A stretch of DNA of 64,000 nucleotides from Bacteroidota bacterium (GCA_027621365.1 JAQCBH010000007.1:22447-86446); one strand, 5' to 3'; shown: positions 4,536 through 57,873, counted from the stretch's first letter. The notes: generated from the sequence alone by a model not told the origin. Program-made: numbers and translations.

Positions 4536-4571
4536 TTGGAGTTTTGCCGGAATTTATCCTGTGATGGGAGG

Positions 4572-4613
4572 CAGGATTGCCTCGTTCGGCTATCGCCGAA
4601 CTCGGCGAACCTG
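4572..4613 (-). repeat. Split T-arm-like hairpin element, copy at tRNA-Leu(GAG)
   Basis: Minus strand reads CAGGTTC-GCC-GA-GTTCGGC-GATA-GCCGAAC-GA-GGC-AATCCTG. The flanks are nearly identical to 57044..57082. Confidence 0.8.
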
Positions 4614-4628
4614 AGGGGCGATCTTACC

Positions 4629-4750
4629 CAAGGCCCGGCTTCCTCGCGCAGCGAGGAAGTGGCCTTTCTTTTTTCCTCTCAGGCTCAACCCTTTGGCTTG
4701 GCCTTCGCTGAAAAAAGAAAGGCCCAGCAGCCTGCGGCTGCCGGGCCTTG
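4629..4750. repeat. Four-way cruciform (nested inverted repeats) directly 3' of tRNA-Leu(GAG)
   Basis: Outer arms CAAGGCCCGGC (4629-4639) / GCCGGGCCTTG (4740-4750); perfect 15-bp central arms GGCCTTTCTTTTTTC (4661-4675) / GAAAAAAGAAAGGCC (4710-4724); two side hairpins. Confidence 0.85.
4711..4749 (-). terminator. Intrinsic terminator of tRNA-Leu(GAG)
   Basis: Minus strand AAGGCCCGGCAGCC-GCA-GGCTGCTGGGCCTTTCTTTTTT, a GC-rich stem followed by a U tract. Confidence 0.75.
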
Positions 4751-4834
4751 TGCCCAGTACTGGATTCGAACCAGCACGTCCTTGCGAACACCACCCCCTC
4801 AAGATGGCGTGTCTACCAATTTCACCAACTGGGC
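4751..4834 (-). tRNA. tRNA-Leu(GAG)
   Basis: GCCCAGTTGGTGAAATTGGTAGACACG-CCATC-TTGAGGG-GGTGG, long variable arm, GCTGGTTCGAATCCAGTACTGGGCA. CCA is not encoded. Confidence 0.96.
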
Positions 4835-15141: not shown

Positions 15142-15906
15142 ATGGCTAATCATACCCCTGCAGCATTTGAGAACCAGCCTATGTGGGCTGGAGGACGCTC
15201 TCCTTTCAACGTGAGCTACGGTAAGCTGATGATGTGGATTTTCCTCTTGTCAGACGCATTTACATTCTCCAGTCTTTTGGTTCAATACGGAGCCCAGCGT
15301 TTTTCTAACGTAGAATCAGCCGTCACCACCGTGTGGCCTGATCCTGCTTCGATTTTTAACCACTTCCCCTTCATGCACGGTTTGCATTTGCCCTTGCTGT
15401 TTGTGTCGGTGATGACTTTCATCTTGATTTTGTCATCTGTGACTATGGTATTGGCTGTAGAAGCCGGCCACCGCAACAGCAAAAAGGAGGTACAGACTTA
15501 CATGATTTACACCATCATTGGGGGTGTGGCATTTTTAAGTTGCCAGGCATGGGAGTGGTACACTTTCATTCATGAAGGCGCCCGCTTGTATGGCAATACC
15601 TTCGGTATTACCGAGCAAGGATATGAGCATTTGCACAGTGTGAGTTTTGGTGACCATTTTGAGTGGGCTTTGGGTGATAGAACTGACGGTCCTGTTCCCT
15701 TTGCGGCCTTGTTCTTCATTGTTACAGGTTTCCACGGTTTCCACGTATTCTCAGGTGTAGTGATCAACGTGGTGGTTTACATTATGACCGTTCGCGGAGT
15801 GTTCGAGCGCCGTGGCCATTACGAAATGATCGAGAAGGCCGGTTTGTACTGGCACTTTGTAGACTTGGTTTGGGTATTTGTATTTACCTTCTTCTATTTG
15901 ATTTAA
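15142..15906 (+). CDS. Cytochrome c oxidase subunit III family protein (second copy)
   Basis: SYGKLMMWIFLLSDAFTF, FFIVTGFHGFHV and GLYWHFVDLVWVFVF. Start set at ATG 15142. Confidence 0.92.
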   Translation: MANHTPAAFENQPMWAGGRSPFNVSYGKLMMWIFLLSDAFTFSSLLVQYGAQRFSNVESAVTTVWPDPASIFNHFPFMHGLHLPLLFVSVMTFILILSSVTMVLAVEAGHRNSKKEVQTYMIYTIIGGVAFLSCQAWEWYTFIHEGARLYGNTFGITEQGYEHLHSVSFGDHFEWALGDRTDGPVPFAALFFIVTGFHGFHVFSGVVINVVVYIMTVRGVFERRGHYEMIEKAGLYWHFVDLVWVFVFTFFYLI

Positions 15907-25450: not shown

Positions 25451-27000
25451 GTTCGGGGTGTAAGGGTGACCAATGGGCACATCATTTCTTCCAGCGAAAT
25501 GCCTCCATGTTGGAAGGTGTTTCGGTAGTAATTGACGTAGTGGTTGTAGTTGTTGGGGTAGGCGAAAAAGTCGTTGTCTTTGGCGAAGACGAAGGCAGAA
25601 CTCAAGTGCTGCAAGGGCAAATACAGGTCGGCGGGTTTGCGAACCTCGTACACTTCTTTGGCATTGTAACTGAGGTTTTTGCCCTGCTTGTAGCGCAGGT
25701 TGGTATTGACGTTTTTATCGCCGACAATCTTCACGGGGTCTTTGACACGAATGCTACCGTGATCGGTGGTGATGATGACTTTGCAGGGTTTGGTGCTGAG
25801 CCATTGCAAGGCTTCCCACAAGGGGGAATGCTTGAACCAAGTGGCCATGACGTTGCGGTAAGCGGCCTCGTCTTCGGCCAATTCCCGCACGATTCGGTTG
25901 TCGGTTCGGGCGTGACTGAAGGCATCGACAAAGTTGTAGACGATGACATTCAGTTTGTTGTTCAACATGTTGGGAACATGGTCGGCCATTTCCTTGGCGT
26001 TTTGCAGGTTGGTGACCTTGGTGTACGAGAATTTGATGTCCCGGCGCAATCGCTTGAGCAAGTCGGCCAAGAAGGCTTCTTCGTGCAGGTTTTTGCCGCC
26101 TTCGTCTTCGTCGTTGCTCCACATTTTGGGGAATCGCTTCTCAATTTCCTGGGGCAGCAATCCGCTGAAAATGGCGTTGCGGCAGTATTGGGTCGTGGTC
26201 GGCAAGATGGACAAGTACAAATCTTCGTTGCGCACCCGGTAGCGATCTTGCATGATATCGCCAATGGCTTTCCATTGGTCGAAGCGCAGGTTGTCCATCA
26301 ATATGACAAATACGGGAACATCGCCATCTAACTCGGGGTTGATGCTTCGGCGAAACAGGTTGTGGCTCATGATGGGGCCATCGTCACCCGTCGGATGAAG
26401 AAAGCCAGCAAACTGATCTTGAATGAAACGGGCAAAGTTTCGGTTGGCATCCAACTTTTGGGTTTCCAAGATCTCTATCATGGAGCCCTCGTTGGTCTTG
26501 TCGAACTCCATTTCCCAAAACACCAATTTCTTGTAAACCTCTTTCCACTCGTCAAAGCGCAAACGATCGCTGACGGTCATCCCAATTTGCATGAACTCGC
26601 GCTGGTAGCCTTGGGTGGTTTTTTGACCTACCAATCGCTTCTCATCCAAGTTTTTCTTGATGGACAGCAGAATCTGGCTAGGGTTCACCGGCTTGATCAA
26701 ATAATCGGCGATTTTGGAACCAATGGCTTCTTCCATGATGTGTTCCTCCTCGCTTTTGGTGATCATGATAACCGGAATCTCGCTCTTGAGTTGTTTGATC
26801 TGAGCCAAGGCATCCAAGCCCGAAATGCCGGGCATGTTTTCGTCCAAAAAAATCAAATCAAACGATTCGGCTTTCACCGCATCAATGGCGTCGCGACCGC
26901 TGCTCACGGGGTGCAGTTCGTAACCCTTGCCCTCCAAGAAGAGAATATGGGGTTTCAGCAAGTCAATTTCGTCGTCGGCCCAGAGAATTCGCGGTTTCAT
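25447..27000 (-). CDS. porX: T9SS response regulator PorX (receiver + PglZ alkaline-phosphatase domain)
   Basis: ILWADDEIDLLKPH, LDENMPG, DNLRFDQW, SILPTTTQYCRNAIFSG, TTDHG and FQHGGISLEEM. Confidence 0.93.
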   Translation of the reverse strand: MKPRILWADDEIDLLKPHILFLEGKGYELHPVSSGRDAIDAVKAESFDLIFLDENMPGISGLDALAQIKQLKSEIPVIMITKSEEEHIMEEAIGSKIADYLIKPVNPSQILLSIKKNLDEKRLVGQKTTQGYQREFMQIGMTVSDRLRFDEWKEVYKKLVFWEMEFDKTNEGSMIEILETQKLDANRNFARFIQDQFAGFLHPTGDDGPIMSHNLFRRSINPELDGDVPVFVILMDNLRFDQWKAIGDIMQDRYRVRNEDLYLSILPTTTQYCRNAIFSGLLPQEIEKRFPKMWSNDEDEGGKNLHEEAFLADLLKRLRRDIKFSYTKVTNLQNAKEMADHVPNMLNNKLNVIVYNFVDAFSHARTDNRIVRELAEDEAAYRNVMATWFKHSPLWEALQWLSTKPCKVIITTDHGSIRVKDPVKIVGDKNVNTNLRYKQGKNLSYNAKEVYEVRKPADLYLPLQHLSSAFVFAKDNDFFAYPNNYNHYVNYYRNTFQHGGISLEEMMCPLVTLTPRT

Positions 27001-27058
27001 TGAGTAAATATGCGTTAAAAATCGTGCCAAAGATTCGGATTTTTTGCAACTTTGATCC

Positions 27059-27724
27059 ATGAGTTCGCACCACGTCGTTCGGGACCTTCAAGAGCCGGCC
27101 TTGATTTTGGCAAATGGAGCTCCTTGTGGGGAAGAACTCTTGGGGCAACTCTTGGAATGGAGCCCCTTTACTCTTGTGTTGGATGGGGCCATTGAACGCG
27201 CCAGTCAATTGGGCATACGAGTCGATGCCTGGTTGGGTGATTTTGATTCAGGATCGGAACAAACCTATGCGGAGTTATCTGCTTTGCAACCCGTGGTCAA
27301 AATTGAGGCCCCCAATGCCGATAAAACCGACTTGGAAAAAGGGGTGGAGTGGTTGATTGCTCAGGGCCACAAGGCGGTGAATATCGTTTGGGCTACGGGC
27401 AAACGCGCCGATCATACGGTCAACAACATGATGGGATTGGCTGCCTATTCCCATCAGATCAACTGGTCCATTTTGGATGATCACTCGCGGGTCTTTGAAG
27501 CACCGAATCCCTTTCGAAAATGGTATCCAGGGGGCACGGCCTTATCACTGATTCCCGTGGGGGAAGTCAAGGGGGTCTGCAGCGAAAATTTGGAGTGGGA
27601 ATTGGACCAATTGGATTTGTCCTATCCGCAGAGAAGTGGATCATCGAACCGGGTCAAAGCCGACGGATTCGTCACCGTAGAACGCCAATCTGGGCACTTG
27701 CTGCTCATGGAATGCTGGGATTAA
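27059..27724 (+). CDS. thiN: Thiamine diphosphokinase
   Basis: MSSHHVVRD.QEPAL, LGDFDS, KTDLEKG, ATGKRADH and GSSN. Confidence 0.9.
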   Translation: MSSHHVVRDLQEPALILANGAPCGEELLGQLLEWSPFTLVLDGAIERASQLGIRVDAWLGDFDSGSEQTYAELSALQPVVKIEAPNADKTDLEKGVEWLIAQGHKAVNIVWATGKRADHTVNNMMGLAAYSHQINWSILDDHSRVFEAPNPFRKWYPGGTALSLIPVGEVKGVCSENLEWELDQLDLSYPQRSGSSNRVKADGFVTVERQSGHLLLMECWD

Positions 27725-29650: not shown

Positions 29651-30728
29651 GGTGCAAAGATAGGGCTTGCAGGATGGAATCGGCCAGCCGCTTGTTGACG
29701 CCAGGCTCACCAAGGCGGTCTCGCAAAACGGCGTATTCTTGTTTTTGTTGGAGCCAGCTTGGACCCTCTGGTGCCAAGCGTTTCAATTGGGATTGAATGC
29801 TTGTTACATGGCAGTGTCCTTGAATGAGCTCGGGGACGATTTCGGATTGGGCGACCAAATTCACCAGCGATATGTACGGTACTTTGATCAGCCATTTGGC
29901 AGCCCAATAAGTCAGGGCAGATGTTCGGTACAGAACCACTTGAGGGACCCCGAACAAAGCGGTCTCCAAGGTAGCAGTACCCGAAGTGACCAAGGCCAGC
30001 TGGGCCTCTTGGAGCAAGTTGTAGGTTTGGTCCATTTGCAGCTCAATGGTTGAATTCTTGAGGATACCTCGGTACAATTCAATGGGCAATGCCGAAGTGC
30101 CAGCAACGACGGGAGTCAGCTCCGGCATGGCCTTAGCAGCCTCTATCATCAGGGGCAAGAGAGACTCCACTTCTTGCTTGCGGCTTCCAGGGAGCAGAGC
30201 AAGTAGCGGTTTGGATGCTGAAGTCTGTTCGGGTATTTGATCCATCAAAGGATTGCCGATGTAGGTGCAGTTTACCCCTCTTTGACCAAACCATTCGGCC
30301 TCAAAAGGCAAGATGCCGTACAGGGCTGTCAAGCTTTTTAAATCTTGGGCGCGCTTTTCGTTCCAGGCCCAGGCTTTGGGTGCGATGTAAAAGTGGGTTT
30401 GTCCTTTGAAGGATCGGAGGCGTTTCAAGACCCTCATATTGAACCCGGGATTGTCTATGAATACAACCGCATCGGGATTTTCTCGTTCGATGTCCTGTAC
30501 GGCCGCTGTTAAAAATTGGCGCAAGGATCGCAGGTTTTTGATGACCTCCCAAAGCCCCATGTAGGCCCTTTGGCGGTAGTCGCTGAGCAAACGAGCCCCA
30601 GCTTTCTCCATCAAGGGCCCTCCCCAAGCCACAATCTCCAAATCGGGTCGTTGTAGCTTCAACTCGGTGACCAAATGGCTACCGTGCAAATCGCCGCTGG
30701 CTTCACCGGCAAGGAGAAAGAGTTTCAT
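29640..30728 (-). CDS. lpxB: Lipid-A-disaccharide synthase
   Basis: AGEASGDLHG, ID.PGFN, ILPFE, LLPGSRKQEV and SGTATLE. Confidence 0.95.
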   Translation of the reverse strand: MKLFLLAGEASGDLHGSHLVTELKLQRPDLEIVAWGGPLMEKAGARLLSDYRQRAYMGLWEVIKNLRSLRQFLTAAVQDIERENPDAVVFIDNPGFNMRVLKRLRSFKGQTHFYIAPKAWAWNEKRAQDLKSLTALYGILPFEAEWFGQRGVNCTYIGNPLMDQIPEQTSASKPLLALLPGSRKQEVESLLPLMIEAAKAMPELTPVVAGTSALPIELYRGILKNSTIELQMDQTYNLLQEAQLALVTSGTATLETALFGVPQVVLYRTSALTYWAAKWLIKVPYISLVNLVAQSEIVPELIQGHCHVTSIQSQLKRLAPEGPSWLQQKQEYAVLRDRLGEPGVNKRLADSILQALSLHHER

Positions 30729-51119: not shown

Positions 51120-51193
51120 CGGGATGTAGCGCAGCCCGGTAGCGCACTTGCATGGGGTGCAAGGGGTCGCTGGTTCGAATCCAGTCATCCCGA
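51120..51193 (+). tRNA. tRNA-Pro(GGG)
   Basis: CGGGATGTAGCGCAGCCCGGTAGCGCA-CTTGC-ATGGGGT-GCAAG-GGGTC-GCTGGTTCGAATCCAGT-CATCCCGA. CCA is not encoded. Confidence 0.96.
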
Positions 51194-51197
51194 CGAT

Positions 51198-51306
51198 CGA
51201 CAAGCCCCTGGCGAAAGCCAGGGGTTTTTTTTGGGTTGGCGCGTGAATGCCTGTGGCATTCCAAAGCGCCAACCCATAAAACCGCCGCGCAGCGGCGGGC
51301 TTGTCG
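51198..51306. repeat. Four-way cruciform directly 3' of tRNA-Pro
   Basis: Outer arms CGACAAGCCC (51198-51207) / GGGCTTGTCG (51297-51306); central arms TGGGTTGGCGC (51232-51242) / GCGCCAACCCA (51266-51276); side hairpins TGGC-GAAA-GCCA and GCCGC-GCA-GCGGC. Confidence 0.85.
51202..51232 (+). terminator. Intrinsic terminator of tRNA-Pro
   Basis: AAGCCCCTGGC-GAAA-GCCAGGGG followed by T8. Confidence 0.85.
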
Positions 51307-51324
51307 TTCAGGCCACCTCCTCAA

Positions 51325-51362
51325 GGATGGCCAAGGCCTATAAGGCCGAAGGCAATCCAGTC
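51325..51362 (+). repeat. Hairpin plus T-stem copy element, variant at tRNA-Pro
   Basis: GGATGGCC-AA-GGCCT-ATA-AGGCC-GA-AGGC-AATCCAGTC. The last 9 nt duplicate AATCCAGTC from the T-arm of tRNA-Pro. Confidence 0.65.
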
Positions 51363-51408
51363 GAGATTCTCTGTTGCCCTACTTCCCAGCCCGCAGTATC
51401 TTTACACC

Positions 51409-53359: not shown

Positions 53360-53991
53360 TGAGGGCGCTGCTGTTTGATCTGGATAACACCCTTTACCCG
53401 GAGGCTAATTATTTCCGAGCCATTTTTTCGCAGTTTTCGCAAAACGAAGGGCTGGATTTTGAAAGATTTGCATTTCTATTCAATGATTTTGACCACATTC
53501 GATTTACGCAGCGGGACATTTTTCGCTACGCTTTGAACCAAGCGGGCGAGTTTTCTGAGACTCGACACCAAGCTCTGTTTGAGTTGTTTGTGGGTATCAA
53601 ATGTGAACTGAAATCATACGATGGCGTACAAGAACTAATAGACTGGGCCCTCGCTGAAAACGTGCGCATCGGTGTATTGACCAACGGTCATATTGAGGCT
53701 CAGTCCAACAAATGGAATGGCTTGGCATTATCGGGCAAAGAACACATTCACTTTGCACCAGCCCGGCTTTTGGGCGCCGATAAACCTTCATCTCTAAGCT
53801 TCGAAGAAATGATGATTCAGATGGGTTGCCGAGCCGAGGAAACGCTCTTCATTGGCGACCGCTTTACCAACGACATAGAATGGGGATTGAATCAGGGTGG
53901 GAAGGGAGCCCTGGTGAATGCTCACGAGAAAGGCGAAGGAGTGCCTTCGTTTGAGTCATTTGAGCCATTGTTGGATTGGGTGAAGCGTTAG
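53359..53991 (+). CDS. HAD-superfamily hydrolase
   Basis: FDLDNTLY motif I, LTNG motif II, KP and FIGDRFTND motifs III/IV. Confidence 0.88.
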   Translation: MRALLFDLDNTLYPEANYFRAIFSQFSQNEGLDFERFAFLFNDFDHIRFTQRDIFRYALNQAGEFSETRHQALFELFVGIKCELKSYDGVQELIDWALAENVRIGVLTNGHIEAQSNKWNGLALSGKEHIHFAPARLLGADKPSSLSFEEMMIQMGCRAEETLFIGDRFTNDIEWGLNQGGKGALVNAHEKGEGVPSFESFEPLLDWVKR

Positions 53992-54029
53992 AATCTGTAA
54001 ATGTCCAAAGCCTGTAAATGGTGCAAAGT

Positions 54030-56153
54030 CTAGGGCTTTCGGCCACTCAAATTCCATCTAATACCGATAAACAAGCGCCTTCCTTGGTTGGGCGCGTAGA
54101 TGTAGGCGGGATCAAAGGTCAATCCAAAAGGATTTTCCGGGCTCACGAGAGCCTTTCCATCCGAATCGAATTCTACTAGCCTATCGAAGGGATCATGGCT
54201 GCGAGCAATGAGAAACGGATTGCCCTTATTGGGTGTCCAATTCAATAGGTTCTTTGCACCGCCATAGAATTCAATCTGGCCATTAAAGGTCTTGGTGAAC
54301 TGCACATTTTGAATGCTCCACCAAGGTGATTGATCTTTTCGAGGATCCCATGGGCTAAGCAAGGGCAGTAGCATGGGGCTGTAGACATTACCGGTGTAGT
54401 CGATTGATATTCCCAAAGTGCGAATCGGGTAGGACAAGTTCCAAGTGGCGGTGAACCTCTCCGTGAACATTTGCCGTTGGCGTTTGCCCTTATCAGAGGA
54501 AGATACGTCCATGATTGTTGCCCCCAGAGTAAACTTGATACCAGACTTCGAAAGACATTCCGTTTGCAATGAAAGTCCTGTTGATCGAGCTGTTCCTTTG
54601 AGGTTGTCATAGATGATTTTGTTGGGATCTGTCGTTAAATCAGCGATGATTTTGTTATCGAAATGGGTATAGAAAATGGCGGCATCCACTCCAAGGAGGG
54701 TTCCATTTTGATTGTGCATTCGCTTGGTGAAATTGATAGTGCCGTTCCAAGACCTTTCCGGTTTTAATTGCGATAGAAATACAACCTTCCTCGCCCCAGT
54801 AAGGGAGGCATGGTCTTCTGTGAAAACTTGGGCAATTCTGTATCCGTTGCCAATCCCACAGCGCAACACTTGTTGGCCATTCGGAGATTTCCATTTAAAG
54901 TTGAGCCGAGGGCTGACAATGTTTCCATGAATGGAATTCCTGTCGTAGCGAAGGCCCGTTAACAAGACTTTTCCCGTGCCCAAGTTCCATTCGTGTTGAC
55001 CAAACAAACCAGGCAAATGGGTGATTTGAGCGAGGTTGAACGATTGACCTAATGAATCGAAGAGGGTTGTCACCACTGTATTGTCGTCGTAGAATGTGTA
55101 GCGATAAGTGATGCCAGCCAGAAAATGATGTTGGTTCAGGGTTTTGTTCCAAGTGCATTGAGCAAATCCCACTCGCTGTTGAGCATTGAACAACAGATTC
55201 CCGTAAGCGCTGTTCTGTTGGTGGCCATTGGCGCTGAAGCTAAGCATCACATCCTCTTGAAAAGGCAGCTGGTATTGACCAAAGAACTCCCACCGACGGG
55301 TATCGATACTTTCTCCATAAATGCTATCACTTCCTCGGAATTCAGGTGTCCACTGCTGTTGACCGCCCCAGCGTTCTTCATTCACATAGCGAGCAGCGAC
55401 AGTGAGCAAACGACCCTCTCTGCGTTCCATGCTCCATTTGTTGAACAAGGATATACGGTCTTGCAGGGTGACATCGGTAAAGCCATCTGAATTGTGGTCA
55501 ATGGGGTTTTGGTAGTAGAAACGGTTCAATCCTACCAGCGAATGCAGTCTACTGCCCATTTTGGTGGCCCATCCTACATCCAAATTGCTTTCTGCCCAAG
55601 TGTTCGAAATGATGTCTACCTGAAGGGGTACGGTATTTTCTGCTTTTTTCGTGATGATGTTGATCAGGCCCCCTACAGCCTCGCTTCCATATAGGGTAGA
55701 GGCTGGCCCTTTGATGACTTCGACACGATCAATGATGGACTGAGGCATACTGGATAGGCCATATACGGTTGATAATCCGCTAACGATGGGCATTCCATCC
55801 ACCAGAACCATGGTGTAGGGACCTTCCAGCCCATTGATATGGACATCTCCGGTATTGCAAATGCTGCAGTTAATCTGGGGTCTCACCCCGTTGATTCCCT
55901 GCAGGGCTTCAAAGACAGATGGCGTAGGATTGGCCTTGAAATATTGGGCAGTAAAAACTTCAACAGGTACAGGATTTTCAAGTTTTGACATAGCCCTAAG
56001 AGTTCCCGTTACTACGACCTCTTCAAAAATGGAAGCCTTGGAAAGGCTGTCAGATTCCTGCGCAAAAGTGCTGTTGATCAGTCCTATTCCAAGGACCGAC
56101 ATCCAGCATTTGGCTCCACTGAATTGGCAAAATAGTTGTTGGATTGGGCGCAC
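54030..56153 (-). CDS. TonB-dependent receptor with CxxC plug (probable metal uptake)
   Basis: EEVVVTGT, GVRPQINCSICNTGDVHINGLEGPYT, RVEVIKGPASTLYGSEAVGG and C-terminal GRRLFIGIRW. Start uncertain (GTG 56153 or ATG 56102). Confidence 0.88.
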   Translation of the reverse strand: MRPIQQLFCQFSGAKCWMSVLGIGLINSTFAQESDSLSKASIFEEVVVTGTLRAMSKLENPVPVEVFTAQYFKANPTPSVFEALQGINGVRPQINCSICNTGDVHINGLEGPYTMVLVDGMPIVSGLSTVYGLSSMPQSIIDRVEVIKGPASTLYGSEAVGGLINIITKKAENTVPLQVDIISNTWAESNLDVGWATKMGSRLHSLVGLNRFYYQNPIDHNSDGFTDVTLQDRISLFNKWSMERREGRLLTVAARYVNEERWGGQQQWTPEFRGSDSIYGESIDTRRWEFFGQYQLPFQEDVMLSFSANGHQQNSAYGNLLFNAQQRVGFAQCTWNKTLNQHHFLAGITYRYTFYDDNTVVTTLFDSLGQSFNLAQITHLPGLFGQHEWNLGTGKVLLTGLRYDRNSIHGNIVSPRLNFKWKSPNGQQVLRCGIGNGYRIAQVFTEDHASLTGARKVVFLSQLKPERSWNGTINFTKRMHNQNGTLLGVDAAIFYTHFDNKIIADLTTDPNKIIYDNLKGTARSTGLSLQTECLSKSGIKFTLGATIMDVSSSDKGKRQRQMFTERFTATWNLSYPIRTLGISIDYTGNVYSPMLLPLLSPWDPRKDQSPWWSIQNVQFTKTFNGQIEFYGGAKNLLNWTPNKGNPFLIARSHDPFDRLVEFDSDGKALVSPENPFGLTFDPAYIYAPNQGRRLFIGIRWNLSGRKP

Positions 56154-56161
56154 TTCACGTT

Positions 56162-56204
56162 CAAAGTTAGAATAATCAAACAAAACAATTAGAATATGCT
56201 AATT
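56162..56204 (-). promoter_or_regulatory. -7 promoter (TAACTTTG, 56162-56169) overlapped by tandem palindromic operator candidates
   Basis: GTTAGAATAATCAAAC (56166-56181) and AATTAG-AATATG-CTAATT (56187-56204) share TTAGAATA with a 22-bp offset. Confidence 0.5.
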
Positions 56205-56345
56205 ATTTTTGGTTTGAAGCCATGAAAAGTCTTGGATCTGGGTGGAAAAGGCGACTATGGTATATGGAAATGGCAAGGGGGATCCCAGGCCATTTTTTCG
56301 CATTTTTAGAAATAATGAGGTTGCTTAGAGGAACACACTCAGTAA

Positions 56346-56367
56346 ATGTCGTGCAGATGTCGTGTAG
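56346..56367 (+). promoter_or_regulatory. 11-bp tandem direct repeat upstream of the XRE gene (operator candidate)
   Basis: ATGTCGTGCAG ATGTCGTGTAG, about 30 bp upstream of TATTTTTG (56398-56405). Confidence 0.45.
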
Positions 56368-56409
56368 GAATCAGAGATGTTGAAAGTGGGCTATGGCTAT
56401 TTTTGTACC

Positions 56410-56796
56410 ATGCAAATGGGCAGTGAGATCAAAAAGGCGCGAAAGCAAAAAGGGCTTACTCAAGCTGAGTTGGCGGAGCATTCTGGGTTGACCGAACGAA
56501 CCATTCAACGCATAGAAAACCACGAGGTTGAACCTTCTGCATACTCATTAGGAAAGTTGAGTGTGATACTGGAAGTTGATTTCCAAAACATGAAGGACAG
56601 TATCCAAAAGAGGCAGAATTACGGGTTGTATGGCTTTGTAATTGTTTATTCGGCCGCCATGATTTTCCGAGTGTTTTCTTCTACAACAGATTGGCCCTTT
56701 TGGTGGGAGTTCATCATTTGGCTTTCGGTGATTATAGGTGTTCTAAGTAAGCAGATCTACATTCCCTATTACCTGAAAAATTCGAAAAAAAATTAA
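56410..56796 (+). CDS. XRE-family HTH protein with two C-terminal TM helices
   Basis: IKKARKQKGLTQAELAEHSGLTERTIQRIENHEVEP followed by two hydrophobic helices. Confidence 0.85.
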   Translation: MQMGSEIKKARKQKGLTQAELAEHSGLTERTIQRIENHEVEPSAYSLGKLSVILEVDFQNMKDSIQKRQNYGLYGFVIVYSAAMIFRVFSSTTDWPFWWEFIIWLSVIIGVLSKQIYIPYYLKNSKKN

Positions 56797-56868
56797 ACTG
56801 CGTGTTTTCTGTGGTGGTACTGCCATTGAACGTTCGCGGTAATAACTAGCTGATATTTCTTCAAGAGC

Positions 56869-57082
56869 AGACAGGATTGCCTCGGCGGCGAAGCCGCCTG
56901 ATGCTATACCCGAATGAACCTCTGTTATCGCTAAGGTGAATTACCAGGAAGATTAGACAGGATTGCCTCGGCGGCTGCGCCGCCTGATGCTGTTTTCGAA
57001 TGAAGCTGTGTTATTGGTAAGGACAACAATCTGTGAGATTAGACAGGATTGCCTCGGCGGCTAAGCCGCCTCAGCGAACCTG
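56869..57082. repeat. 2.5 tandem copies of an 86-bp hairpin-containing unit
   Basis: AGACAGGATTGCCTCGGCGGC-NNN-GCCGCCT starts at 56869, 56955 and 57041, with loops GAA, TGC and TAA. The linkers are diverged but related. Confidence 0.92.
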
Positions 57083-57101
57083 TTAGGCCGAATTCCGAGC
57101 C

Positions 57102-57213
57102 CAAAGCCACCGCGCTTTCGCGCCGTGCTTTTTTCATTCCCTTTGGCTTGCTCACACGGGGTGTGGCTCGCGTCGGGAATGAAAAAAGCCCTTGGCCATA
57201 GCCAAGGGCTTTG
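57102..57213. repeat. Four-way cruciform directly 3' of tRNA-Leu(CAG)
   Basis: Outer arms CAAAGCC (57102-57108) / GGCTTTG (57207-57213); perfect 15-bp central arms GCTTTTTTCATTCCC (57127-57141) / GGGAATGAAAAAAGC (57175-57189); two side hairpins. Confidence 0.85.
57182..57212 (-). terminator. Intrinsic terminator of tRNA-Leu(CAG)
   Basis: Minus strand AAAGCCCTTGGC-TATG-GCCAAGGGCTTTTTT. Confidence 0.85.
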
Positions 57214-57222
57214 TGTTCTTAG

Positions 57223-57304
57223 TGCCCAGAACAGGACTCGAACCTGCACGCTTTGCGGCGCTGCCACCTGAAGACAGTGCGTCTACCAATTTCGCCATCT
57301 GGGC
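57223..57304 (-). tRNA. tRNA-Leu(CAG)
   Basis: GCCCAGATGGCGAAATTGGTAGACGCA-CTGTC-TTCAGGT-GGCAG, variable arm, GCAGGTTCGAGTCCTGTTCTGGGCA. CCA is not encoded. Confidence 0.96.
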
Positions 57305-57330
57305 AAGCGACAACCTTTCGGTTGGGGTGG

Positions 57331-57338
57331 CAAATATA
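57331..57338 (-). promoter_or_regulatory. -7 promoter element for tRNA-Leu(CAG)
   Basis: TATATTTG on the minus strand. Confidence 0.75.
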
Positions 57339-57417
57339 CAAAGGAATTGACTTGGATTAGGCGATTTCATTCATCATGAAAAGAGCTTGTCAATTCTGTA
57401 AATTGCTGGCGAGATTC

Positions 57418-57873
57418 ATGTCCAAATCAGCCTTCATCGCCAGTAGAGTTCACGCTCTGTTTTTTGGTCCCAACTGGACTGAAACCAGTTTGTCAGAGTT
57501 GATACAGAACCACACGTTTGCTCAGTTTTTAAATACGAAATTGGGAAGGAATTCAGCCGCAGCCGTCTTGTTTCATATTCATTACTATCAGCGAGCGCAA
57601 TTGACTGTGCTTCAAGGAGGCCCTTTACACGCAAAAGACTCTGAGAGTTTTGATCATCCCAAATGGGAAGATGAATCAGATTGGTTACCGTTTGTTTCAA
57701 CGGTCATTGATACCGGTAGGGAATTGGAATTAAAAATGGCTCAAATGCCGGAGTCCGTATGGTCAGAACCCTTCGTCAAAGCCGAATACGGCAGCTATGA
57801 AGTCAACCTATTTGGCATGTTGGAACACAGCTATTACCACTTCGGGCAACTCAGGCTGGCAATGAAGCCTTAA
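57418..57873 (+). CDS. DinB/DUF1572 family protein
   Basis: G.NWT, NSAAAVLFHIHYY and GMLEHSYYHFGQL (DinB HxxxH motif). Confidence 0.85.
   Translation: MSKSAFIASRVHALFFGPNWTETSLSELIQNHTFAQFLNTKLGRNSAAAVLFHIHYYQRAQLTVLQGGPLHAKDSESFDHPKWEDESDWLPFVSTVIDTGRELELKMAQMPESVWSEPFVKAEYGSYEVNLFGMLEHSYYHFGQLRLAMKP

Follow-up and report, generated by a model that had tools for sequence, protein, structure and literature searches.

Introduction

Mobile DNA lands above all at transfer RNA (tRNA) genes, and a partial copy of a tRNA is usually taken as the scar of an integrated island. Williams reportedly described in 2002 that integrase islands use the T-loop as a sublocation within tRNA and transfer-messenger RNA (tmRNA) genes. 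Casposons insert at the 3' ends of tRNA genes with target-site duplications of 14-15 bp, while repetitive extragenic palindromic (REP) sequences and bacterial interspersed mosaic elements (BIME) are intergenic palindromic repeats that are moved by RAYT transposases and dispersed in hundreds of copies. Bidirectional, or face-to-face, intrinsic terminators occur behind tRNA genes. The accessible part of the Islander database paper describes tyrosine-integrase islands whose displaced repeats (attL/attR) are partial copies of the tRNA or tmRNA gene that they occupy (PMC4383910), and the accessible part of the work on tycheposons of Prochlorococcus describes stacked elements with partial tRNAs as separators (10.1101/2020.12.28.424599). 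The portions at hand of two further sources mention only a short palindrome after Methanopyrus tRNA genes (PMC5217627) and, in a 2026 preprint on tRNA mimics, other RNAs. Here we describe an array of three short repeats behind the tRNA-Leu(CAG) gene in a 64,000-nt stretch of DNA, called the window (GCA_027621365.1 JAQCBH010000007.1:22447-86446), from an uncultured aquatic Bacteroidota bacterium whose 2.13-Mb assembly (G000) is 94% complete.

The evidence leans modestly towards an array that arose when the outer half of a distal element was amplified locally in tandem; the distal element itself closes a non-coding module of ~185 nt. Modest as a local event, the array is of value because it brings to light a conserved family of modules that bear copies of tRNA tails. 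The family appears to be undescribed: no description was found in the full-text literature searched, which did not cover supplements, and among the families of Rfam 15 only tRNA reached its gathering threshold, with all other matches far below.

Results

The array behind tRNA-Leu(CAG)

Three units of 31 nt start at 56869, 56955 and 57041 and differ in their loops alone (GAA, TGC and TAA on the plus strand). The pattern AGACAGGATTGCCTCGGCGGC-NNN-GCCGCCT matched exactly at 56869-56899, 56955-56985 and 57041-57071, and the invariant stems and all-different loops reported by the initial annotation were thus confirmed. With up to three mismatches allowed, the window held no other match (0.00 expected from 100 dinucleotide shuffles). 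The exact unit was found nowhere else in the 2.13-Mb genome, and a dispersed repeat was rejected on this ground. Tandem Repeats Finder reported 56869-57071 with a period of 86, 2.4 copies, 82% matches and 0 indels.

The two linkers are mutually homologous and of equal length, as had been noted, but the length of about 49 bp given for them has to be replaced by 55 nt with a 31-nt unit. Between repeats 1 and 2, identity was 28/28 at the non-loop positions of the unit and 39/55 at the linker positions. The core is therefore tighter than the linkers, since it carries none of the 16 mismatches among 83 positions (hypergeometric P = 5.8e-4), and the structural constraint proposed earlier is also supported by stems that covary between loci and species (see below). 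On the tRNA strand each unit ends in AATCCTGTCT, for which the counterpart in tRNA-Leu(CAG) itself is AGTCCTGTTCT; the resemblance of this end to a tRNA tail, likewise part of the earlier proposal, stood up in the cognate test described below.

The features of the locus, from the array to the tRNA, are given in window coordinates.

56869-56899, minus strand: unit 1, a 6-bp GC hairpin (plus-strand loop GAA), GAGGC and AATCCTGTCT; exact pattern match
56900-56954, minus strand: linker 1, 55 nt, 39/55 with linker 2; its tRNA-strand end is a decayed A-run adjoining the hairpin
56955-56985, minus strand: unit 2, loop TGC; exact pattern match
56986-57040, minus strand: linker 2; one difference from the stretch between the units of metagenomic contig L030
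57041-57082, minus strand: complete distal element, unit 3 (loop TAA) plus the partner strand CAGCGAACCTG; from the fold, covariance models and pair counts
57083-57107, no strand assigned: spacer; GTTAGGCCGAATTCCGAGCCCAAAGCC begins at 57082
57108-57141, plus strand: stem A and T-run, terminator-like; from the fold and alignment A2
57128-57188, no strand assigned: stem B, in which the T-run and CATTCCC pair with GGGAATG and the A-run; inner hairpin at 57150-57169
57175-57221, minus strand: stem C and U-run, the tRNA-Leu(CAG) terminator (hairpin and U-run at 57175-57209)
57222-57304, minus strand: tRNA-Leu(CAG), called by ARAGORN; Rfam tRNA score 49.5 bits

Unit 1 is the outer half of the distal element without its 5' partner strand. 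On the tRNA strand, linker 2 still carries ..ATTCGAAAACAGCA ahead of the hairpin, to be compared with AATGAAAAAAGCA ahead of stem A. The 86-bp repeats are the outer half of the distal element plus decayed module sequence. No open reading frame (ORF) of at least 50 aa was found between 56797 and 57048, and the bounded segment contained no integrase. A GC hairpin directly followed by a U-run, the mark of an intrinsic terminator, was found in stem A (plus strand) and stem C (minus strand); the units lack it, unit 1 having no T-run and unit 2 a broken one.

A pseudo-tRNA was considered because 86 bp approximates the length of a class II tRNA, and was rejected since a search with Rfam and Infernal at E <= 1 sees only the real tRNA. 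A copied variable arm was also rejected, as no class II tRNA of the genome has an arm like the unit hairpin.

Fold and covariation of the distal element

The distal element consists of a GC hairpin, GAGGC, and a copy of the T-loop end, the 3' strand of the T-stem and the first acceptor bases. Unit 3 and the copy at tRNA-Leu(GAG) run on into ..GCGAACCTG; in the predicted fold this stretch and CAGGATTGC.. pair, and the hairpin is thereby extended. On the tRNA strand the base of the element is T-arm-like (CAGG TTCG ... AAT CCTG) and is interrupted by GCY-GA-(variable hairpin)-GA-GGC.

A scan with the 10-nt flank located the same motif 140 nt behind tRNA-Leu(GAG), at 4572-4613, with a third version of the stem. 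Alignment A1, which holds eight full copies with three stem versions, had 92% of its cells paired compared with 82% after shuffling (0/500 as high), and 4/5 apical pairs had changed on both sides. For comparison within the genus we used four species genomes, G000 to G003. A covariance model of the distal element (R1, run before the second model, R2) found a third locus in G000, G002 and G003, which lies ~130 nt behind the tmRNA gene in G002 and G003. In G000 this element stands at the start of contig C12 and abuts the end of C33, which bears the tmRNA. The outer stem in G002 and G003 is UGGA/UCCA at this locus, changed from CAGG/CCUG. The stem-compensated element was found at three loci (Leu(CAG), Leu(GAG) and tmRNA) and in four species. 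The unit 3 element scored 71.1 bits with R1 (C19:79486-79532) and 45.2 bits with R2 (C19:79484-79546).

Alignment A4 extended the analysis to 13 elements from 9 kinds of tRNA or tmRNA. The lower helix was 82.7% paired compared with 72.1% after shuffling (0/500), 4/8 pairs had changed on both sides, and slid controls were 22-52% paired. In our reading of A4, a tandem G.A/A.G motif has GA on both sides at 8/11 loci; seen from the plus strand, the motif is U.C/C.U. Conserved throughout the family are GAGSC-AAT-CC and the hairpin.

The tRNA-Leu(GAG) element of G000 shows how the fold and the tail copy relate. The cognate tail CCAG, present in G002 and G003, is CCTG in G000, which restores pairing with CAGG. 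Because this change gains pairing at the expense of tRNA identity, it suggests that the fold is the constrained feature and the tail copy a historical one.

The module and its occurrence behind tRNA and tmRNA genes

Beyond what the initial annotation had covered, we found that the units are a fragment of a larger module recurring behind about a dozen tRNA and tmRNA loci. The module is ~185 nt long and non-coding, with two face-to-face terminators clamped in a four-way junction. Three loci aligned over ~190 nt share the order distal hairpin, spacer, hairpin A, stem B, terminator hairpin C and tRNA, and this layout is visible in alignments A2 and A3. Stem B is the T-run of hairpin A (plus strand) paired with the A-run of the tRNA terminator, and in the outer helix the first bases past tRNA-Leu(CAG) pair with bases past stem A. 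Stem A covaries in G001 and G002, and stem B has compensatory changes in G002.

A profile of the three-locus alignment, run with nhmmer, gave additional matches in G000, and the 260 nt behind all 37 tRNA and tmRNA genes of that genome were listed and read by eye. An architecture ending in GAG(G/C)C, A(A/G)T(T)CC and cognate bases was seen at Leu(CAG), Leu(GAG), Pro(GGG), Cys, Met (of a Glu-Met pair), Arg(CCT), Ser(GGA) and Val(GAC). The module also follows the original flanks of tRNA-Ser(TGA) and tRNA-Ser(GCT), now beyond inserted islands. In total it occurs at Leu(CAG), Leu(GAG) and Pro(GGG) in the window, at tmRNA, and at about eight other tRNA loci. At 8 loci GAGSC lies 153-166 nt from the tRNA end, with the first unit counted at Leu(CAG), and at Val(GAC) the spacing is 244 nt. 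The other two modules of the window are as follows.

4566-4749, minus strand: tRNA-Leu(GAG) module; tRNA 4750-4834, distal element 4572-4613, stem A 4639-4659, stem C 4721-4747
51195-51366, plus strand: tRNA-Pro(GGG) module; tRNA 51120-51194, outer helix 51198-51206 with 51298-51306, stem C 51205-51224, stem A 51282-51298

The tRNA-Leu(GAG) module has the stem GTTCGGC/GCCGAAC, an R2 score of 48.5 bits and a four-way-junction fold with z = -7.0. At tRNA-Pro(GGG) the corresponding values are 36.6 bits (C19:73751-73812) and z = -8.2, and the distal element (51323-51362) ends in AATCCAGTC, which equals the tRNA's own 9 nt. The plus-strand terminator is present at this locus although there is no convergent gene. 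RNAalifold on a MAFFT alignment of 14 modules recovered the inner B hairpin and the distal helix only, because stems C, B and A were out of register in that alignment. An inverted tail copy ahead of the distal hairpin was rejected as a general feature, being clear at tRNA-Leu(CAG) only.

Several side observations concern individual modules. The Val(GAC) module (C5, ~120760-121047) contains an internal duplication, with two copies of CCGCCGCTAAATTAACCCTGGTTGGCCTTGGCGTGGTCGG ahead of GAGCC|AATCCGTT. At tRNA-Ser(TGA), an island-like segment of ~16 kb (C18:14251-30518) runs from the tRNA to a displaced tail copy, ATCCTCTCTCTCCGC (30504-30518); it has PF00589 matches at 15363-15860 and 26979-27392, and beyond it the tRNA's original flank carries a doubled module. 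A stretch of 23 nt identical to the 3' end of tRNA-Ser(GCT), followed by a module, lies on another contig (C2:1478-1500, C31:53661-53750) and is probably the far end of a second island. Contig breaks of G000 fall in or beside modules at the end of C33, the start of C12, C7:18-77, C26:17928-17990 and the end of C1; the modules may interrupt assembly repeatedly, whether by their repeats or by variation between strains.

Cognate tail copies

The bases copied after AAT read CAATTCC.CCAAC at tmRNA, AATCCAG at Leu(GAG) in G002 and G003, and AATCCTGT.CT at Leu(CAG). The exact prefixes shared with the cognate gene were 9 nt for Met, 6 for Pro, 5 each for Leu(CAG) and Arg, 3 each for Cys, Ser(GGA) and Ser(TGA), and 2 each for Val, Leu(GAG) and tmRNA. 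The summed prefix of 40 over these 10 loci was reached by 0/5000 random reassignments of the 37 tails, and the signal was carried mainly by five loci. Anchored exact matches on mis-registered tails had given no signal, and a 12-nt global alignment was not discriminating.

A copy of the 3' part of the tRNA that lies downstream, has the same orientation and is cognate to the gene, as expected of attL/attR repeats, was thus found. The tail copies of the three units do not run to the tRNA 3' end and stop after about 10 nt; a copy that reaches the tRNA end and is followed by the original flank occurs only in a separate tRNA-proximal duplication of metagenomic contigs L030 and L033. The 3' halves of the pseudo T-arm are cognate and the 5' halves are not.

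Distribution and independent arrays

The second covariance model (R2), built from the 13 distal elements of A4, gave 13 hits in G000, and the placeable ones all lie beside tRNA-type genes or their displaced flanks. At E <= 0.01 it detected the element in 38/125 genomes of the family and in 9/15 genera, one of which had it in 12/12 genomes. In a sample of the order, 28/151 genomes were positive at E <= 0.001, including 6/66 of the sister family. In the 12/12 genus the element has the same strand as tRNA-Met, which it follows at ~120 nt, and its tail copy reads CCTGTTC.

Related arrays occur at other tRNA loci and in other genera, so the array is not a one-off. At tRNA-Cys, G002 has three copies with a 73-bp period, whose apical stems differ compensatorily between units, and G000 has one copy. 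At tRNA-Met of G106 there are two copies with a 135-bp period, and further tandem sets were found in G022 (three), G151 (three) and the tRNA-Ser(TGA) flank of G000 (two). The point at which the repeat restarts varies by array, lying inside stem A, inside stem B or after CTAA. The differing restart points are a better fit to generic unequal recombination than to crossover at one fixed site.

At the orthologous tRNA-Met locus, downstream DNA was available for 26/28 loci. The module and distal element were present in 5 of these (G000, G106, G095, G019 and G034), representing four genera; 20 had a plain terminator homologous to stem C, and that of G001 was truncated. No precise insertion boundary could be resolved between filled and empty tRNA-Met loci, the flanks being too diverged.

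Two other kinds of repeat were noticed near tRNA genes. On L024 (G011), ~500 nt 3' of a tRNA-Leu pair, four tandem copies of ~93-110 nt carry CCCCTCCGTAAG.. and ..GGTAATCC on the tRNA strand; they resemble a diverged member of the element family and were not scored by R2 at E <= 0.1. Downstream of tRNA-Met on L106 (G005) and L103 (G028) are many tandem ~16-nt units, CCTGAGACGCAYCAYG, flanked by the palindrome GACGCATCATGATGCGTC; this is a different repeat.

Copy number and alleles among close relatives

The comparison of copy number among relatives that had been suggested showed that it varies, with 0, 1, 2 or 3 units. At the Leu(CAG) locus G000 has 3 units, G001 has 3 of another stem type, G002 has 1 and G003 has 0. 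The single unit of G002 has the same flanks as in G000. In G001 the stem AACCGC/GCGGTT replaces GGCGGC/GCCGCC, again self-complementary, and the unit spacing is irregular.

A scan of metagenomes with the conserved flanks gave four contigs, L030 to L033. L032 and L033 have one unit each, L030 has two, and L031 is G001-like and ends at the contig edge. The first unit of L030 is a decayed hybrid of units 1 and 2 of G000, with a broken stem and an altered flank. In the comparison of sequencing runs, which used assembled contigs only, run X4 had a one-unit allele, in which a TGC-loop unit stands directly between the sequence that lies upstream of unit 1 and the terminal flank. The TGC loop of unit 2 is retained in the one-unit alleles of G002, L033 and run X4. 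The hybrid unit, the allele differences of whole periods and the variable restart points fit unequal recombination or replication slippage.

L030, L033 and run X6 have a second duplication, ~180 bp long, which adjoins the tRNA; at its junction the last 14-17 nt of the tRNA are copied more fully and run on into the normal tRNA flank. The spacer of the window aligns, with a deletion, to the junction in L030 and L033, ...TTAGTGCCGA(G/T)GACAG..CCGAGCCC. Addition at the tRNA-proximal side, as the initial annotation had envisaged, is therefore seen in these three cases, but the pieces added are whole modules of ~180 bp and not 86-bp units. Homologous arrays whose linkers are replaced by genes, which had also been anticipated, were shown by no relative. 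A single RNA contig, 324 nt long and belonging to a relative that differs by 23 letters and 19 gaps, spans 57110-57432 only and stops short of the units.

Neighboring genes

In G000, a TonB-dependent receptor gene (minus strand) and an XRE-type helix-turn-helix (HTH) gene with a hydrophobic tail (plus strand) occupy 54030-56796, between a HAD hydrolase gene and the array. The HTH gene is also directly upstream of the unit or units in G002, L030, L032 and L033, and the HAD gene adjoins the tRNA-Leu region in G001 and G003, in G001 directly upstream of the units. Insertion of the receptor and HTH genes at a unit was rejected, as there is neither unit-like sequence nor a repeat at the far boundary (53991-54030). 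In other genera of the family tRNA-Leu(CAG) and tRNA-Leu(GAG) stand in tandem, 15-60 nt apart (L019-L026); in this genus the two genes (4750-4834 and 57222-57304) are 52 kb apart, each with its own module.

Discussion

The best reading of these results, which we hold with slightly more belief than doubt, is that unequal recombination amplified a structurally constrained element derived from a tRNA tail. The short identical repeats, each a hairpin with a tail copy, could misalign between sister chromosomes or during replication of hairpin-rich DNA. Whole periods would then be gained or lost, leading to the 0-3 units in relatives and to independent arrays at other tRNAs. Loops and linkers would drift while the core of the unit is fixed by selection that acts on one strand in its folded state, the tRNA-sense strand being the likelier. 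The tail copy would be historical: the 3' part of the tRNA may have been duplicated at the birth of the module, in an event of the attachment-site or target-site type, and have since evolved as a helix arm. As to function, we suggest weakly that the module insulates transcription around the tRNA gene, and that the distal hairpin might serve as a processing or protection signal in read-through RNA, or offer a secondary place to dock to integrases whose crossover lies in the T-loop.

A number of observations weigh against this reading. On the tRNA strand the element sits behind a strong terminator, so a role as RNA needs read-through. The strand signals conflict, an invariant U.G pair (8/8 in A1, Leu-type copies) favoring the plus strand and the tandem G.A motif the minus strand. 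Units 1 and 2 are conserved to the same degree as unit 3 although the 5' partner of the lower helix is missing from them, which selection on the full hairpin fails to explain. The statistics are thin, the 28/28 identity coming from one repeat pair plus the third unit, and stems could also stay complementary through template switching at near-palindromes, with no need for selection. A short tail copy, extending 2-3 nt beyond CC, is found at some loci (Val, Ser and Leu(GAG) of G000). Modules share non-tRNA sequence across loci (GCCCTCC..AGG, GCGAAC and GAGSC), and their stem B and outer helix show complementarity to flanks that are specific to the locus and exist at "empty" loci too; taken together, these two facts mean that neither pure mobility nor pure local duplication suffices. 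The locus-specific complementarity points to local inverted duplication or long co-evolution, while the non-cognate 5' and cognate 3' halves of the T-arm would look like an attR hybrid or the end of an element beside a target-site duplication.

A broader proposal is possible, although we regard it as tentative. Undescribed structured elements found across the order would install themselves directly downstream of tRNA and tmRNA genes in a T-loop-directed duplication event that copies the tail, and would persist as a four-way-junction module whose T-arm mimic acts as folded RNA or single-stranded DNA; the arrays would then be repeated rounds of this event. Copying of the tRNA's own tail would explain the cognate tails at a dozen tRNAs.

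It is unlikely that the units go back to as many separate site-specific integrations, each of which left as its scar a displaced tRNA 3' fragment and an arm of an element since deleted, as the initial annotation had suggested along with empty cassettes. The tail copy does lie downstream of the gene in the orientation of the tRNA, and the halves of the pseudo T-arm are arranged as in an attR hybrid. G000 holds a real island of ~16 kb at tRNA-Ser(TGA), with two integrase-family matches and a tail repeat that starts at the T-loop end, as well as the 23-nt copy of the tRNA-Ser(GCT) 3' end. The fresh tRNA-proximal additions of L030, L033 and run X6, with a fuller tail copy ahead of the normal flank, would also be expected, and the accessible part of the tycheposon paper describes stacking with partial tRNAs between elements (10.1101/2020.12.28.424599). 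However, linkers that are homologous (39/55) and equal in length indicate that one unit was copied, and not that three elements decayed to the same remnant. The absence of an ORF or integrase from 56797-57048 and of gene-bearing linkers adds to this, and viral contigs gave 0 matches to both unit types when queried with the units, not the linkers, so that a phage or plasmid origin of the units was rejected. Moreover, the tail copies end after 5-10 nt, short of the tRNA end; the module is kept at the orthologous tRNA-Met locus in four genera; and one generic element could not restore ~12 different tRNAs.

We consider it quite unlikely that the array is a functional RNA, such as a multi-hairpin small RNA, an element of a 3' untranslated region (UTR), for example a protein sponge, or a precursor cut to ~86-nt species. 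Covarying stems, free loops and the conserved tandem G.A motif are what such an RNA would have, and repeated (A)GGA motifs adjoin the hairpins. On the plus strand the array lies between the stop codon of a gene and a conserved terminator, so that transcription as a 3' UTR is expected, here and at tRNA-Leu(GAG). The motif, on the other hand, becomes U.C/C.U on that strand, and there is no match to an Rfam family at its gathering score. A sponge of the CsrB/RsmZ type was rejected because the 94%-complete genome had no CsrA (PF02599) match while the controls matched. In G002 and G003 the element follows the stop codon by 15-20 nt and leaves no room for a promoter. The upstream gene varies (HTH in G000, HAD in G001), and tRNA-Pro has the module without a convergent gene; the element therefore goes with the tRNA and not with an mRNA.

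A neutral, decaying tandem duplication produced by slippage in hairpin-rich intergenic DNA and free of constraint would suit the unstable copy number, the decayed first unit of L030 (broken stem, changed flank), and the lack of the array in G003 and of the tRNA-Leu(GAG) element in G001, which make the element dispensable at any single locus, but it is very unlikely in view of the conservation of core versus linker (P = 5.8e-4), the compensatory stem changes at three loci in four species, the occurrence of the family in 38/125 genomes, and the recurrence of arrays at other tRNAs.

Amplification of a constrained, tail-derived element would place the short tail copies in a context different from that of island scars: here they sit in a conserved, covarying hairpin that ends a folded module, at about a dozen loci and across genera. 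A functional module would be a new architecture of tRNA loci, whether it insulated transcription, gave a processing signal or served as a decoy for docking. Were it instead a miniature mobile unit, it would copy target tails in a way that known integrases do not explain. In either case, island-finding programs that rely on partial tRNA repeats as boundaries may mis-call such modules.

In a comparison with integron attC sites, the motif GTTAGGC was found once, at 57082-57088, with GTTGGGC in G001, and is absent from the tRNA-Leu(GAG) and tmRNA elements; the stems have only 6-7 bp and the linkers no ORF. A hairpin element of the IS200/REP type was rejected, as G000 has no match to a Y1 transposase (PF01797). 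REP sequences and BIMEs share with the array short GC-rich hairpins, conserved flanks and tandem clusters in intergenic DNA; in contrast to them, the element has ~13 copies per genome, all behind tRNA-type genes. Casposons would explain cognate copies at many tRNAs, since a tRNA 3' duplication flanks an insert that starts right after the tRNA, whereas here there are no terminal inverted repeats, the genome has no Cas1, and the insert is <200 bp. CRISPR-like or casposon-like addition of units was rejected on the lack of Cas1 (PF01867) and because the linkers are homologous and not unrelated spacers.

Like tyrosine-integrase islands, the module has a tRNA 3' copy that lies downstream in the same orientation and starts from the T-loop end, and it uses tRNA and tmRNA genes alike. 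Unlike them, its segment is only 153-166 nt (244 nt at Val(GAC)), non-coding and without an integrase; neither integrase nor cargo was found within the bounded segment, and the four PF00589 matches of G000 are all on other contigs. The copy is only 5-10 nt long and lies within a covarying hairpin, and the same module recurs at ~12 tRNAs across genera. Tycheposons, as far as the accessible part of their description goes, share growth next to the tRNA, older material lying outward, partial tRNA separators, and several tRNAs plus tmRNA as seeds; they are kilobase-sized elements with integrases and cargo, whereas the repeats here are structured, non-coding and 73-180 bp long. The resemblance to face-to-face terminators lies in stems C and A, which each have a U-run on their own strand and act convergently. 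The module differs from these in that the outer helix and the stem of U-run and A-run clamp the two terminators into a four-way junction, followed by a T-arm-like hairpin that carries the copy of the tRNA tail.

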